Assembly (NCBI GenBank): GCA_024280215.1
Contig: JAJRQO010000014.1
Span: forward strand, 431-64,430
Length of the DNA stretch: 64,000 nucleotides
Direction of reading: 5' to 3'
Source: Candidatus Zixiibacteriota bacterium
GTDB taxonomy: Bacteria; Zixibacteria; MSB-5A5; GN15; FEB-12
In this document: positions 35,601 to 38,321 of the stretch, one piece after another
Layout: every line of letters starts with the position of its first letter
Position numbering within the stretch: the stretch's first letter is position 1
Position numbers and translations under genes: made by a program
The notes under the pieces: generated by a model
Told to the model about the DNA's origin: nothing
The model's database searches: none
What the model saw: only the letters and a program-made list of their open reading frames with translations

Positions 35601-36436
35601 TTGTTGAAATTTTATCCGACCCTTCATTGAAGATTGTTGCCTACTACAATATGGATAGCCGTATTGACCGTGCCACCAATGACCTCAAAGCACTTGGTAC
35701 TCTCATGCTGATGCTTGGCAAACTCGGTGTTGATGGTTCAGGTATTGCGATAACATCGGGACAGTGTAACCAAACGGGGATGAAAATCACAGGCTATGAC
35801 CGTCATCTACTTCCTGGTGGACGATCTGTTGAAGATGCTTCTGCGATGAAAGAAATTTCTGCTATTTGGCAAAAAGATATTTCTGCAACGATTGAAAAAT
35901 CTGGACATAATATCAACCGTAAGATGCGTGATAATAAAATTCGGGCAGCCTTTATCTTTGGTGAGAACCCAGCCAAGGACCCAGAATACAATTCGTTTAT
36001 TGACCATCTTGATTTCTTGGTTGTCGCTGATATGTTTAAAAATGAAACCGTTCAGATGGCTGATGTTTTCCTACCGATGTCATCATACCTTGAGGGCAAG
36101 GGGCATCTTACCAATTGGGCTGGCACAAAACAATTCACCAATCCAATCGGCGAACCTTTGAGTGGGAAACTGAATCTCGATATTATCAATGAACTGATGC
36201 ACATCGTTGGTTATGACCGTGCCATAAATTCATTTGATGAGTTAGCATCTGAGATTGAGTACATGCAGAAACATGCTGGGGTAGCGGTTCCACTTCAGGC
36301 ACCATTTGCGACTGACGATGGCAAGGCACACTTCGCATTGTACACGACAGAAATTTCTACGACGTCTGCCAATGTCGAAGATATACTTGAAATCGATTCC
36401 CGCATCGCCGCCCGCACCAAAGAAATCAATGTGTAG
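32696..36436 (+). CDS. Fused 2Fe-2S / GltD-like FAD-NADPH / NuoG-FdhA-like subunit
   Basis: CFLCVVE, CGRVC, GGGPAG, GGGNTALD, YRR, FAGGD, CIRCGRC, CVSCGNC, CNYCSVGC, LCVKGRFG. Confidence 0.85.
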   Translation: MVKLTINGKEVTASEDKTILQVCREQNIDNNIPTLCNDDKLKPYGSCFLCVVEMEGVDKLFPSCATKVGEGMKIQTRSEKVKAARKTCLELLVSDHYADCLGPCRLGCPADVDIQGYMSLINLGKPTEAIALIKEKLPFPSVCGRVCTRKCEVNCRRSVIDAPVGIDFLKRYAADQDMIGEMWQPTPKPDNGIPVAIIGGGPAGLTAAYYLVCEGYRPTVYEALPKLGGMLRYGIPEYRLPKDVLAKEIDWITSLGVEVKTETALGKDFTIDSLFDDGFKSVFIGLGAQVGKPMRVENEDVEGVLSGVEFLQQVELKTAPKISGKVIVVGGGNTALDAARSSIRLGADEVVILYRRTRKEMPANIMEIDAADEEGIKMEFLAAPSSINVDKDGRMKSIECFRMELGEPDDSGRRRPVKIDGSEHAIEADWIIAAIGQDVNLDGVDTDDQIELTSWKTIVAKEGTFNTDRPGVFAGGDVVTGPADAVDAIAAGRQAAVAIDSYIKNNVIKPLGYRFESKRDAFHTIKREDLLEVETSERHQMLELPVAKRVSSFDEVEVGYTQDEAVKESLRCAECGCDVSIACDFRDYCSEYEVDQNRFVGAYNKYKVDTRHPFIKIDSNKCIRCGRCVMTCSEILNVSALGFVNRGFRTIVKPAMEKPLLETNCVSCGNCIDVCPTGALNEKMPFRRSGPWKMEGTQSVCNYCSVGCNILINHKTPDLFFVTGAPPDAEPNNGELCVKGRFGYEHYLDGSRLTKPMVKKGDRMVECTWEEAFDAIKVGIGNVYEHADRDQTLITASPKLTNEELYLAGMFARAAVGTNNITSFQRLTTEADYHALDDILGATASTVSNKDVENADLFIFLGGNPTADNPVLGWQMKRRMKNGTKAIVINSNEIDLVQYATAWADPRRGTSTVLLNVIMAELIKAGKIDESFIAGKTTNFDQVKDEMLKHDLDEAASVSGVTAKTISKIVEILSDPSLKIVAYYNMDSRIDRATNDLKALGTLMLMLGKLGVDGSGIAITSGQCNQTGMKITGYDRHLLPGGRSVEDASAMKEISAIWQKDISATIEKSGHNINRKMRDNKIRAAFIFGENPAKDPEYNSFIDHLDFLVVADMFKNETVQMADVFLPMSSYLEGKGHLTNWAGTKQFTNPIGEPLSGKLNLDIINELMHIVGYDRAINSFDELASEIEYMQKHAGVAVPLQAPFATDDGKAHFALYTTEISTTSANVEDILEIDSRIAARTKEINV

Positions 36437-36444
36437 CACATAAT

Positions 36445-36559
36445 GTCATTCCCAACTTGCTTGGTGCCTGCAGGCACTTGGGAATCTATATAGTAGGGCA
36501 GGTCTTTCCAAGACCTGCCTTTTTTAAGAAAGTCACCCTGAGTGGAGTCGAAGGGACTT
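36445..36559. repeat. Mixed repeat cluster; the GTAG hairpin with T-tract probably acts as terminator
   Basis: GTCATTCCCAA...TTGGGAATC with insert; GTAGGGCAGGTCTTTCCAAGACCTGCC-TTTTTT; GTCACCCTGAGTGGAGTCGAAGGG. Confidence 0.8.
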
Positions 36560-36798
36560 TCTTAAAAGTTATCCACAATCTCAATGGCTATAGATTCCGT
36601 TCAATCTTTTCTGTCTTATTAGGTTACACCGAATTGGGTTTGTTTTGTCAAATTTAAGTTTTTTTGATTGTCTCTTTTCCTCTTGATAAAATTATACGCT
36701 TCTCATAGAATAGGGGAGAGTTTGGAATTACATCGGATGTGTAGGGAATATGTGACTCGCAATCTTATATCTATAAGAACAAGAAAACACCTGTCCGC

Positions 36799-36842
36799 CA
36801 TTGTCGTTCCAGCGAAGGCTGGAATCCAGTCTTAAAAATCAA
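36799..36842. repeat. GTC-tagged TTCCAGC-GAAG-GCTGGAA hairpin repeat
   Basis: GTCGTTCCAGCGAAGGCTGGAATCCAGTC; direct copy at 37572-37631, inverted copy at 37923-37949. Confidence 0.8.
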
Positions 36843-36853
36843 AAGAAACCGTA

Positions 36854-37540
36854 TCAATCTTCAACTGTAACTAACACTCCATTATCAAACAAGTCTTGTT
36901 TTATCATTTCACCACGTTCATTATATGTTGTCCATTTCCCATGTTTTTTACCTTCGTTCATTTTACCTACATCAAACCCATCTATTCTATCAACCCATAA
37001 ATCTAATTCCTTGTTTTCAAAAGGGTAATCGATACGAAGTCTTGTACGATTCTTACCAATACAAAGGAGTAATTTTCCATCCATATAAAAACAACTACTA
37101 TCTAAATTATCACTCATAAATTCTTTGGGTGAATCTTTAAACCACTTACATAACCCATGAAGATTACCTTGTTTGTAATACAGTATAGATTTTTCAGTAT
37201 GGTTTTGATACCATTCAACAGATAATCCATGTTTTTTAGCATTTATAAATTGGCTCTCTTCTGCTTTCATACCATTTTCATACCAACTAATAAATGAATA
37301 CGTCATTGTATTCACATAAGCATATTCCGCAGAGATTTTGTTTTTTCCATTCTTATACCAACTCATATATTGCCCATGTTTTACAAACCCTTTTTCGTTC
37401 CCATAATGATTCGTTCTCATGTATAGTTCTTTTAATGTACTATCTTCATAATATACTGAAACAGTATCATATTTTGTGTCATCCCATCCAAAAGATAAAG
37501 CTGGTAGTAAAGTGATTAAAAGTATTAGTAATGTTTTCAT
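36854..37540 (-). CDS. Exported MORN-variant repeat (YwqK-like) protein
   Basis: Signal peptide; repeats such as KHGQYMSWYKNG, KHGLSVEWYQN, KHGKWTTYNERG. Confidence 0.8.
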   Translation of the reverse strand: MKTLLILLITLLPALSFGWDDTKYDTVSVYYEDSTLKELYMRTNHYGNEKGFVKHGQYMSWYKNGKNKISAEYAYVNTMTYSFISWYENGMKAEESQFINAKKHGLSVEWYQNHTEKSILYYKQGNLHGLCKWFKDSPKEFMSDNLDSSCFYMDGKLLLCIGKNRTRLRIDYPFENKELDLWVDRIDGFDVGKMNEGKKHGKWTTYNERGEMIKQDLFDNGVLVTVED

Positions 37541-37622
37541 GAAATCTCCAATCTATTTATAATTATTTTTGCATTATTATACCTGCGAAGGCTGTGCCTG
37601 CAGGCACGCTGGAATCCAGTCT

Positions 37623-37910
37623 TTAAATCAATCGGTTATATAAATCTTCCCATTCTTTATTATCTTTTTCAATAAGTTTCAACTTCCAATTTCGTTTCCA
37701 CCATTTTAATTGTTTCTCCCTACGAATAGCATCTTCAATACTGTCAGCGGATTCATAGTACACTAACGTATCAATATTATACTTTGATGTAAAGCAACTC
37801 CCAAGTTTGTTTTTGTGTTGGTAGACTCGTTTTATTAAGTCGTTTGTGACGCCGATGTAAAGTGTACCGTTTCGTTTACTTGCAAGTATGTATACATAGT
37901 ATGTTTTCAA
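37623..37910 (-). CDS. Small GIY-YIG nuclease (UPF0213/COG2827-like)
   Basis: YYVYILASKRNGTLYIGVT, R, AIRREKQLK; TTG start at 37910 after AGAAAGGT; the longer ORF start reads through repeats. Confidence 0.92.
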   Translation of the reverse strand: MKTYYVYILASKRNGTLYIGVTNDLIKRVYQHKNKLGSCFTSKYNIDTLVYYESADSIEDAIRREKQLKWWKRNWKLKLIEKDNKEWEDLYNRLI

Positions 37911-38321
37911 AATAAAACCTTTCTGGTTCCCAGCCTTCGCTGGGATGACAAAGGGGACAGGGATGACAAAGGGGGGCGTTGTGAAAAATAATAAAGCGAT
38001 GATAGCGTTAGGGCAAAATTTTCCATGCTTTAACATACAATCTCTGACTGACAGGGAATGTCATACTAATCTCAATTTCCCTACAACATCCCACTAAATC
38101 CAAAAATTTCTCTTTAGATGAATGACCTAAAGAAGAGAGAGAAAATACATGAACAAAAACACTATAAATTATAATATCAAAAATGGCTTTAAGCCATTTT
38201 TAAGGGCAAACCCATTTCCTCCTAACACCCTGCGGGTGATTTTTTATAGCGAAAGTTAGTATGAAAAAGGACGTTTAAAAAACTTTTTATATGAGATGGA
38301 ACCCATTTTGGAAATTAAAAA

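Follow-up and report, generated by a model that had tools for sequence, protein, structure and literature searches.

SsnA of Neisseria meningitidis is a 94-amino-acid (aa) single-domain GIY-YIG protein (CDD cd10448, GIY-YIG_unchar_3) that binds the repeat CGTCATTCCCGCGMAVGCGGGAATCYRG (NTS) only as single-stranded DNA (ssDNA) and on one strand only, cutting a few nucleotides (nt) upstream of it (Chenal et al. 2025, Nat Commun, PMC11893778). As described in that paper, the cutting is hydrolytic and strand-specific, falls in the ssDNA 5' of the hairpin, acts on the motif as DNA and not as RNA, and is abolished by each of the substitutions Y6A, Y17A and E64A, and ssnA limits transformation by NTS-bearing DNA. 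At least one repeat of this kind (SRM, of which NTS is the Neisseria form) was reported near 71% of Ssn homologues and on both sides of 42% of them, with an ssn gene present in 81% of the genomes that carry more than 200 SRMs (PMC11893778). The Discussion of the same paper points out, as a hypothesis only, that NTS-ssnA-NTS resembles an insertion sequence (IS), drawing a parallel with IS200/IS605 and with the transposases associated with repetitive extragenic palindromic (REP) sequences. In the latter system (RAYT with REP or REPIN; Nunvar 2010; Bertels & Rainey 2011; Ton-Hoang 2012), one small nuclease gene likewise carries inverted flanking copies of a dispersed short tagged palindrome. Here, we describe a hairpin-flanked GIY-YIG gene in a 64,000-nt stretch (the window) of contig JAJRQO010000014.1 from Candidatus Zixiibacteriota bacterium (assembly GCA_024280215.1), and we conclude that this gene very probably encodes an Ssn-family nuclease, the flanking GTC-tagged hairpins being its cognate SRMs.

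The 95-aa window protein matches the GIY-YIG family of Pfam (PF01541, E = 5.6e-16, residues 4-77) with no second domain above the cut-off, and the lack of a Y1_Tnp match in the Pfam search indicates that the enzyme is not an HUH Y1 (IS200-like) transposase. Upon searching a plasmid collection (7.3-Gb database) by tblastn, we obtained matches in two chromosome-sized N. gonorrhoeae records, at one place each, with 58.9% identity and E = 7e-20, a value well within the E < 1e-10 by which SsnA homologues were called in PMC11893778. The gonococcal match is an unannotated 94-aa open reading frame (ORF) with NTS copies on either side, which we took as the orthologue of N. meningitidis SsnA on account of its length, its Y6/Y17/E64 numbering and its NTS flanks. 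In pairwise alignment, the two proteins share 59% identity over 90 aa (E = 5e-39), and Y7, Y18 and E65 of the window protein align with Y6, Y17 and E64 of the gonococcal one, with equivalents that are invariant in all four paralogues of the genome. The initial annotation had likened the gene to UPF0213 and Slx1, a group with no settled role, a description that is out of date in view of the homology to SsnA. Compared with UPF0213 structures, the window protein gave E = 3e-5 for 1zg2 (BH0048) and E = 0.083 for 1ywl (EF2693); because these values stand against E = 5e-39 for the gonococcal SsnA-type protein, we do not place it in UPF0213. While all of these proteins belong to the small GIY-YIG fold family, the UPF0213 structures fit another paralogue of the same genome far better. 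An NCBIfam search with the window protein and this UPF0213-like paralogue returned no family above the cut-off.

The hairpins on the two sides of the gene differ in their state of preservation. On the minus strand, the upstream hairpin reads TGTCATCCCAGCGAAGGCTGGGAACCAG, with a 7-bp stem and an end 12 nt before the start codon; it fits both the published SRM search motif and the NTS consensus and, folded as ssDNA, reaches -9.8 kcal/mol (z = -3.07), a value equalled by one of 200 shuffles. The downstream element retains the 3' tail GGAATCCAGTC, which shares 95% identity over 20 nt with the copy at 36818-36837, together with the arm CCTGCGAAGGCTG, and the two flanking elements are mutually inverted over 21 nt at 81% complementarity. 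Hence, the reported tight bracketing of the gene by inverted hairpins holds for a clean upstream copy, whereas the downstream copy is a decayed remnant. Allowing up to two mismatches, the repeat core CCAGCGAAGGCTGG was counted three times over the window, where 0.10 occurrences would be expected, and none of 100 shuffles reaches this count. The six other regions in which related repeats had been noted all exist, but they fall into two families rather than one, with two regions of SRM type and four of a family that we call B (GTCAnnCTGAGCnnnGTCGAAG).

The arrangement recurs across the genome under study (G000, a 3.03-Mb assembly that is 96% complete; G001, G002 and so on denote its relatives). 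Six matches to the window protein were found in the assembly, comprising four intact paralogues (61-73% identity), one 3' fragment and one distant paralogue (37-39%). In all intact copies but one, the start codon is preceded at ~10 nt by the end of a forward hairpin GTCATYCC-stem-loop-stem-GGRAWCCAG, or of a variant that lacks the GTCA tag, and the fourth copy (C5) has two such hairpins further upstream, beyond an operator-like palindrome discussed below. A reverse hairpin begins 2-25 nt past the stop in all four, and is intact right after the stop of C2, C5 and C37. The stem variants differ among the four paralogues, with both arms changed in step, and each variant has dispersed solo copies (roughly 8 to 25). 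Among these, ATTCCCAACTTGATTGGGAAT is present 16 times in identical form, the window type ~8 times, and the C5 and C37 types about twelve times each. As each paralogue is bracketed by its own stem variant with dispersed solo copies, the data suggest that several enzyme-repeat specificities exist side by side in one genome. Counted over the assembly, the published SRM motif has 17 matches compared to 3.4 +/- 1.4 in 20 dinucleotide shuffles, and the local pattern GTCATYCC-N7-20-GGRAWCC has 41 compared to none for a reversed control; most local copies escape the published motif because their stems are AT-richer (AACTTGATT, AGCGAAGGCT). This over-representation is modest when set against the SRM-rich genomes described in PMC11893778, which have more than 200 copies. 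At least four further palindromic repeat families are present, including a GTAG-tagged family that is separate from the ssn hairpins with their (T)GTC(A) tag, and five Y1_Tnp (RAYT-like) genes were detected, one of them inside the window.

The pairing of nuclease and hairpin extends to homologues in distant phyla. A scan of one genome per species returned 583 relatives among 599 candidate stretches, and from these we took the best 80 homologue loci, at 59-73% identity, of which 76 were usable after four had been dropped as too short or containing N. These best 80 loci come from Saccharibacteria and other Patescibacteria, Omnitrophota, Dehalococcoidia, Planctomycetota, Verrucomicrobiota, Ignavibacteria, Flavobacteriales, Zixibacteria, Nitrospirae, Alpha-, Gamma- and Deltaproteobacteria, and others. 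Because the published SRM motif finds the hairpin beside only one of the six local GIY-YIG copies, and hairpins on both sides in 18 of the 76 loci, we added a generic detector with its own controls, defined as GTC, a 7-nt arm, its reverse complement and C, with an upstream reach of 110 nt. With this detector, 60 loci have a forward hairpin upstream, 66 a reverse hairpin downstream, and 57 have both in convergent orientation, compared to 25 of 2236 control windows placed 600 nt or more away (about 1.1%) and to 11 and 16 of 76 for the opposite orientation beside the gene. Median distances of the hairpins from the gene are 17 nt at its start and 10 nt at its end. The consensus of 84 of these flanking hairpins, T-GTCATTCCCGCG-AAAG-CGGGAAT-CCAG, equals the published NTS except for its first base, and changes in the stem are compensatory, with pair 6-21 being TA in 70 and CG in 12 hairpins, and pair 9-18 being CG in 63, TA in 10, AT in 5 and GC in 5.

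Repeat abundance also follows the gene. Among 41 relatives of the same order, which are not independent of one another, strong ssn matches and counts of the repeat pattern correlate with a Spearman coefficient of 0.64 (0.60 with one genome per genus, n = 32), and the median repeat count is 22.5 in genomes with an ssn gene (n = 20) versus 3 in those without (n = 21). Both expectations raised by the initial annotation, namely an enrichment of homologues for flanking repeats and a co-variation of gene and repeat number, were thus borne out, and an objection from missing enrichment fails because 57 of the 76 homologue loci carry hairpins on both sides.

Compared to SsnA and NTS, the locus shares a protein of ~94 aa without any other domain, 59% identical to its gonococcal counterpart, a hairpin consensus with oriented tags, a gene bracketed by repeats, and a dispersal of these repeats above chance. 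It differs in its AT-richer stems, so that the published motif finds 17 copies where the local pattern finds 41, in the presence of four paralogues in one genome, each with its own stem variant, in the convergent orientation of the hairpins around the gene, as opposed to the divergent orientation of the two nearest NTS in N. gonorrhoeae, and in a recA-type operator upstream of the gene. Several observations weigh against the assignment to the Ssn-SRM system or against its details. The downstream remnant has decayed to the point where it folds no better than shuffled sequence (z = -1.38, with 18 of 200 shuffles equally good), and the published SRM motif fits the hairpin of just one of the six GIY-YIG copies in the genome. 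A changed stem sequence abolished activity in the published work even where the hairpin was kept (PMC11893778), and the local stems are AT-richer. The architecture is not uniform either, as the gonococcal gene (L214 250-760, NZ_CP119140.1) has its nearest NTS in reverse orientation upstream and in forward orientation right past the stop. Among the relatives, G030 and G036 carry 29 and 16 repeats with weak gene matches only, and G034 and G005 carry 0 and 3 although an ssn gene is present in both. Lastly, the mechanism considered below is borrowed from enzymes of Neisseria and Wolbachia at ~59% identity and may not hold in every respect.

Taken by analogy with these characterised enzymes, the window protein would bind the hairpin only in ssDNA, and there only the strand that reads GTC-ATYCC...GGRAT-C, and it would hydrolyse the GTC-tagged strand a few nt 5' of the hairpin. 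Binding restricted to ssDNA, combined with strand-specific cutting, would place its action wherever SRM-bearing DNA turns single-stranded, such as at replication forks, in repair intermediates or on incoming DNA. The hairpin lies between the promoter or operator and the start codon, and ssn would probably be switched on together with ssDNA and DNA-damage genes, because its putative operator is a palindrome that is also found before recA and ssb.

This palindrome is shared by the ssn genes with a number of others. In the genome, CTGACA-N5-TGTCAG occurs exactly at nine sites, and at 21 when one mismatch is allowed, compared to ~0.2 exact sites expected from the sequence length. Intergenic sites lie upstream of recA, of ssb (two sites), of an endonuclease-IV-like gene and of a divergent ComM-like/PhzF-like pair, as well as upstream of all four ssn genes and of five or six Y1 transposase genes, the genes behind the sites having been identified from N-terminal sequences and domain matches. 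Of 30 relatives, 25 keep the motif before recA with constant spacing when up to two mismatches are allowed, and 21 when only one is; of all 264 tiles of those loci, 29 score, and the five relatives without it all belong to family f3. Among ssn copies in relatives, 8 of 20 have it upstream; it does not lie upstream of the ssn homologues of other phyla, where 80 loci gave four incidental matches. We suggest, as a candidate, that the palindrome is the operator of a DNA-damage or ssDNA regulon that drew in ssn and RAYT genes. Two points speak against this suggestion, namely that it is drawn from gene content only and that no LexA DNA-binding domain (PF01726) was found in the 96%-complete genome. 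We rejected LexA as the regulator, given this result and the finding that the single S24 protein has no DNA-binding domain. The published SOS motifs of Bacteroidetes, GGA-N5-TCC and CTAA-N5-TTAG, differ from CTGACA-N5-TGTCAG. A literature search for RAYT or GIY-YIG together with LexA or an SOS box, judged by title and the start of the abstract, returned nothing relevant on Ssn or RAYT under an SOS-type operator, and the sole mention of GIY-YIG in the parts of that literature covered concerned a COG0847 exonuclease. The sites of the operator motif include those at G000:C16 upstream of 11999-13111 and at G000:C38 upstream of 61338.

Whether the nuclease also spreads its repeats is a separate question, and one that is compatible with the Ssn assignment. 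On this account, hairpin-gene-hairpin would be a selfish mobile element whose nuclease spreads both solo hairpins and its own cassette, as is thought for RAYT with REP or REPIN; we consider this possible, but on balance doubtful. The IS-like architecture, already pointed out in PMC11893778, favors it, as do the four diverged cassettes and the 3' fragment in one 3.0-Mb genome, the 59-73% identical homologues in very distant phyla, the homologues on rhizobial plasmids, and the 16 identical copies of one stem variant, which suggest a recent amplification. In G001, a genome of the same genus (G001:C265:9300-12500, L140), two near-identical cassettes of ~350 nt from hairpin to hairpin lie on either side of a MORN-repeat gene, and G002 has neither cassette nor the MORN-repeat gene between the same outer genes. 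Relative to G001, the window has the right-hand cassette only and carries two solo SRMs at the left-hand site (36803-36827 between the same neighbour genes). Gene-less convergent hairpin doublets, many of them in G021 (92 pattern matches, one gene) and G011, look like miniature derivatives of a cassette and recall the REPINs of the RAYT system. Each of these doublets combines two different stem variants; those of G021 (L202-L212) have a conserved 12-nt spacer and a conserved ~45-nt tail within a longer conserved unit, and those of G011 (L194-L200) have ~64-nt spacers of conserved length and diverged sequence. In addition, CGTC-tagged REPs are stated to lack a dedicated transposase (Di Nocera et al. 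2013, PMC3733652), and SRM/NTS fit the description of these GTC-tagged palindromes, although the likeness is one of description only and the sections of PMC3733652 consulted do not link them to a GIY-YIG gene.

The points on the other side are mechanistic as well as structural. RAYTs are HUH Y1 transposases with a GTAG tag, whereas the enzyme here is a hydrolytic GIY-YIG nuclease with a GTC(A) tag; GIY-YIG enzymes are hydrolytic, and neither strand transfer nor a covalent intermediate is reported for Ssn in the portions of PMC11893778 drawn on here. In a convergent pair, only one hairpin per strand would be cleavable, and therefore single-strand excision of the IS200/IS605 kind ('peel and paste') would not follow. 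No target-site duplications were apparent by eye and no clean empty site was found; upon aligning the gene-less site of the window (36425-36870) with the cassette site of G001, the flanks were too diverged to define the ends of an element. The solo hairpins of the genome itself are mostly singletons, with one pair only within 600 nt under the strict pattern, for which reason REPIN-like doublets were rejected for this genome. Furthermore, no homologue at E <= 1e-10 was present in 50,697 phage records, and some genomes have many repeats and no gene. As originally worded, the claim of a RAYT-like spread of the repeats by this nuclease is not supported, and in print it appears as a hypothesis only (PMC11893778). 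A literature search for GIY-YIG together with 'repetitive extragenic palindromic' found no papers.

Alternatively, the hairpins could be ordinary cis-regulatory or terminator structures of the ssn transcript, a 5'-untranslated-region attenuator and a 3' terminator that appear dispersed because such structures are common. Their position very near the coding sequence would fit, given the median distances above, and the upstream hairpin lies between the operator or promoter and the start and is hence probably transcribed. We nevertheless hold this explanation to be improbable, as the oriented, non-palindromic tags (5' GTC, 3' C-CAG) are kept from Neisseria to this genome, the Ssn enzyme binds and cuts the motif as DNA and not as RNA (PMC11893778), no T-run follows the downstream hairpins, and repeat number tracks gene presence across genomes. 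A mere chance neighbourhood of the gene with an intergenic DNA that is indeed a mosaic of at least five palindromic families and a dispersed ~100-190-nt repeat, with family-B and other repeats a few hundred nt from the gene, is refuted, since ~41 SRM copies in 3.03 Mb cannot fall by chance within 20 nt of both ends of four paralogues and since the same arrangement recurs in 57 of 76 homologue loci of other phyla versus 1.1% of control windows.

The positions of the features discussed in the text are collected in Table 1.

Table 1. Features of the ssn locus, of the rest of the window and of the distant paralogue (window coordinates unless a contig is named)
Feature	Position	Strand	Remarks
ssn gene, single-domain GIY-YIG nuclease, 95 aa	37623..37910 (including stop codon)	-	TTG start; Pfam PF01541
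Upstream SRM/NTS-type hairpin, TGTC-ATCCCAGC-GAAG-GCTGGGAA-CCAG	37923..37950	-	Published SRM motif match, fold, similar genome copies
Downstream SRM remnant, inverted relative to the upstream hairpin	about 37581..37621	+	Begins 2 nt past stop codon; GTCAT tag lost; split by insertion
Perfect 14-nt palindrome GTGCCTGCAGGCAC nested in downstream SRM	37594..37607	.	Identical palindrome nested in SRM 36445-36487
Orphan half-site, tandem duplication of 5' flank and left arm only, CCCCTTTGTCATCCC twice	37942..37974	-	15 nt, 100% identical, 18 nt apart
Operator-like palindrome CTGACAGGGAATGTCAT	38048..38064	.	One mismatch from CTGACA-N5-TGTCAG; ~140 nt upstream of ssn start codon
Solo SRM hairpin, nested palindrome in loop	36445..36487	+	Fold -9.5 kcal/mol, z = -2.68
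Solo SRM hairpin, GTCG tag, sub-family of ssn upstream hairpin	36803..36827	+	84% complementary over 32 nt to 37923-37954; z = -3.36 for the fold
Family-B repeat GTCACCCTGAGTGGAGTCGAAGGGAC	36532..36557	+	Family distinct from the SRMs
Further family-B copies	about 2191-2214; 2239-2260; 2735-2755; 2775-2795; ~24.05 kb	; +; +; -; 	Copy at ~24.05 kb degenerate
RAYT-like Y1 transposase gene	28967..29446	-	Pfam Y1_Tnp E = 1.8e-7, above cut-off; GTAG-tagged palindrome just upstream
Same operator-like palindrome upstream of the RAYT-like gene	29563-29579		GTAG palindrome between operator and gene
S24 peptidase, UmuD-like, 145 aa	2288-2725		No DNA-binding domain; only S24 found in genome; flanked by family-B repeats
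Distant paralogue, UPF0213-like, 97 aa	G000:C37:15649-15939 (L005 959-1249)	- (L005)	GIY-YIG E = 1.6e-18

The distant paralogue provides a second association of a small GIY-YIG gene with repeats. It is 31% identical to the gonococcal protein and matches 1zg2 at 3.6e-15, and it sits among family-B repeats rather than SRMs, with a forward copy upstream and a reverse copy 5 nt past the stop. The family-B pattern CTGAGC-N2-3-GTCGAAG has 109 copies in the genome compared to none for a reversed control. A UPF0213-like match at E <= 1e-20 was found in 29 of 285 sampled genomes of the phylum, and 25 of 30 UPF0213-like loci have a family-B core within 150 nt versus 2 of 606 control windows. The orientation at these 30 loci is mixed (upstream 15 forward and 13 reverse, downstream 7 reverse and 10 forward, inverted on both sides at 5). 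All 29 gene-bearing genomes hold at least five family-B copies (5 to 177, with a median of 41), but by hand count the same is true of ~76 of 256 genomes that lack a UPF0213-like gene, such as G130 with 349 copies. From these counts, it follows that the UPF0213-like gene lives among the repeats and that the repeats do not need the gene. We rejected family B as a hairpin, as the copy at 2233-2268 folds no better than shuffles (z = -0.02); what characterizes the family is a conserved sequence framed by short variable arms, and not a strong palindrome.

The pairing of nuclease and hairpin is real and far beyond chance, yet it is already published as Ssn/SRM (PMC11893778), so that our finding is an independent re-discovery in a distant uncultured lineage and in itself changes little. 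What goes beyond the content of PMC11893778 as consulted are the four paralogues with their own hairpin sub-families, the UPF0213-like paralogue among a second repeat family, and the operator common to ssn, RAYT, recA and ssb. Four diverged enzyme-hairpin pairs in one genome offer ready-made specificities for ssDNA-cutting tools, a use proposed in PMC11893778, and the co-resident RAYT-REP system, with its five Y1_Tnp matches and the upstream operator that it has in common with ssn, permits a comparison within one genome. An operator of the recA/ssb type would be the first regulatory clue to the timing of Ssn and RAYT action, and nuclease-repeat pairing would become a broader principle if a second GIY-YIG clade has a repeat family to itself. 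Tentatively, and with the odds against it, one may imagine that this lineage has a single DNA-damage-inducible set of ssDNA nucleases with repeat partners, made up of its small GIY-YIG nucleases and its RAYT transposases, the partnership extending past the Ssn clade to the UPF0213-like paralogue in the GTCAnnCTGAGCnnnGTCGAAG family. If true, the repeats would be cut, and perhaps copied, in bursts of expression during DNA damage, at a time when hairpins are extruded on ssDNA.

A few smaller observations concern the repeats and their surroundings. The palindrome GTGCCTGCAGGCAC has two matches compared to 0.04 expected, and small perfect palindromes centred on CTGCAG or a similar core were seen inside the loops of SRM and family-B repeats (window 36464-36477 and 37594-37607; G000:C24:5135, G000:C18:71489 and G000:C4:8119), pointing either to a third element with hairpin loops as its target or to a growth of palindromes via template switching. 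Orphan half-sites that lack the right arm were seen just outside complete hairpins, with two tandem copies in the window and a threefold array next to ssn in G011 (L201, G011:C10:89050-89560), and they may reflect past cutting and repair on the 5' side of the hairpin; because arrays of such half-sites scored in just 3 of 76 homologue loci under a strict criterion, we report them as an anecdote for the window and L201. A dispersed ~100-190-nt repeat at about 38100-38240 (minus strand) of the window, upstream of the ssn operator, contains AAATGGCTTAAAGCCATTT and a TTCTCTT...AAGAGAA hairpin; the repeat bearing AAATGGCTTAAAGCCATTT has more than 35 genome copies at 70-85% identity, as well as many in genomes of the same genus, and is unrelated to ssn. 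Finally, a third clade of small GIY-YIG genes, with a GKGAKYTR motif, was observed directly after a tRNA gene (L093, L095, L096, L097 and L099; genomes G036, G017, G038 and G011), where part of the tRNA 3' end (GAATCCTACCTCCTCCG) recurs behind the gene, in the manner of an integration site.

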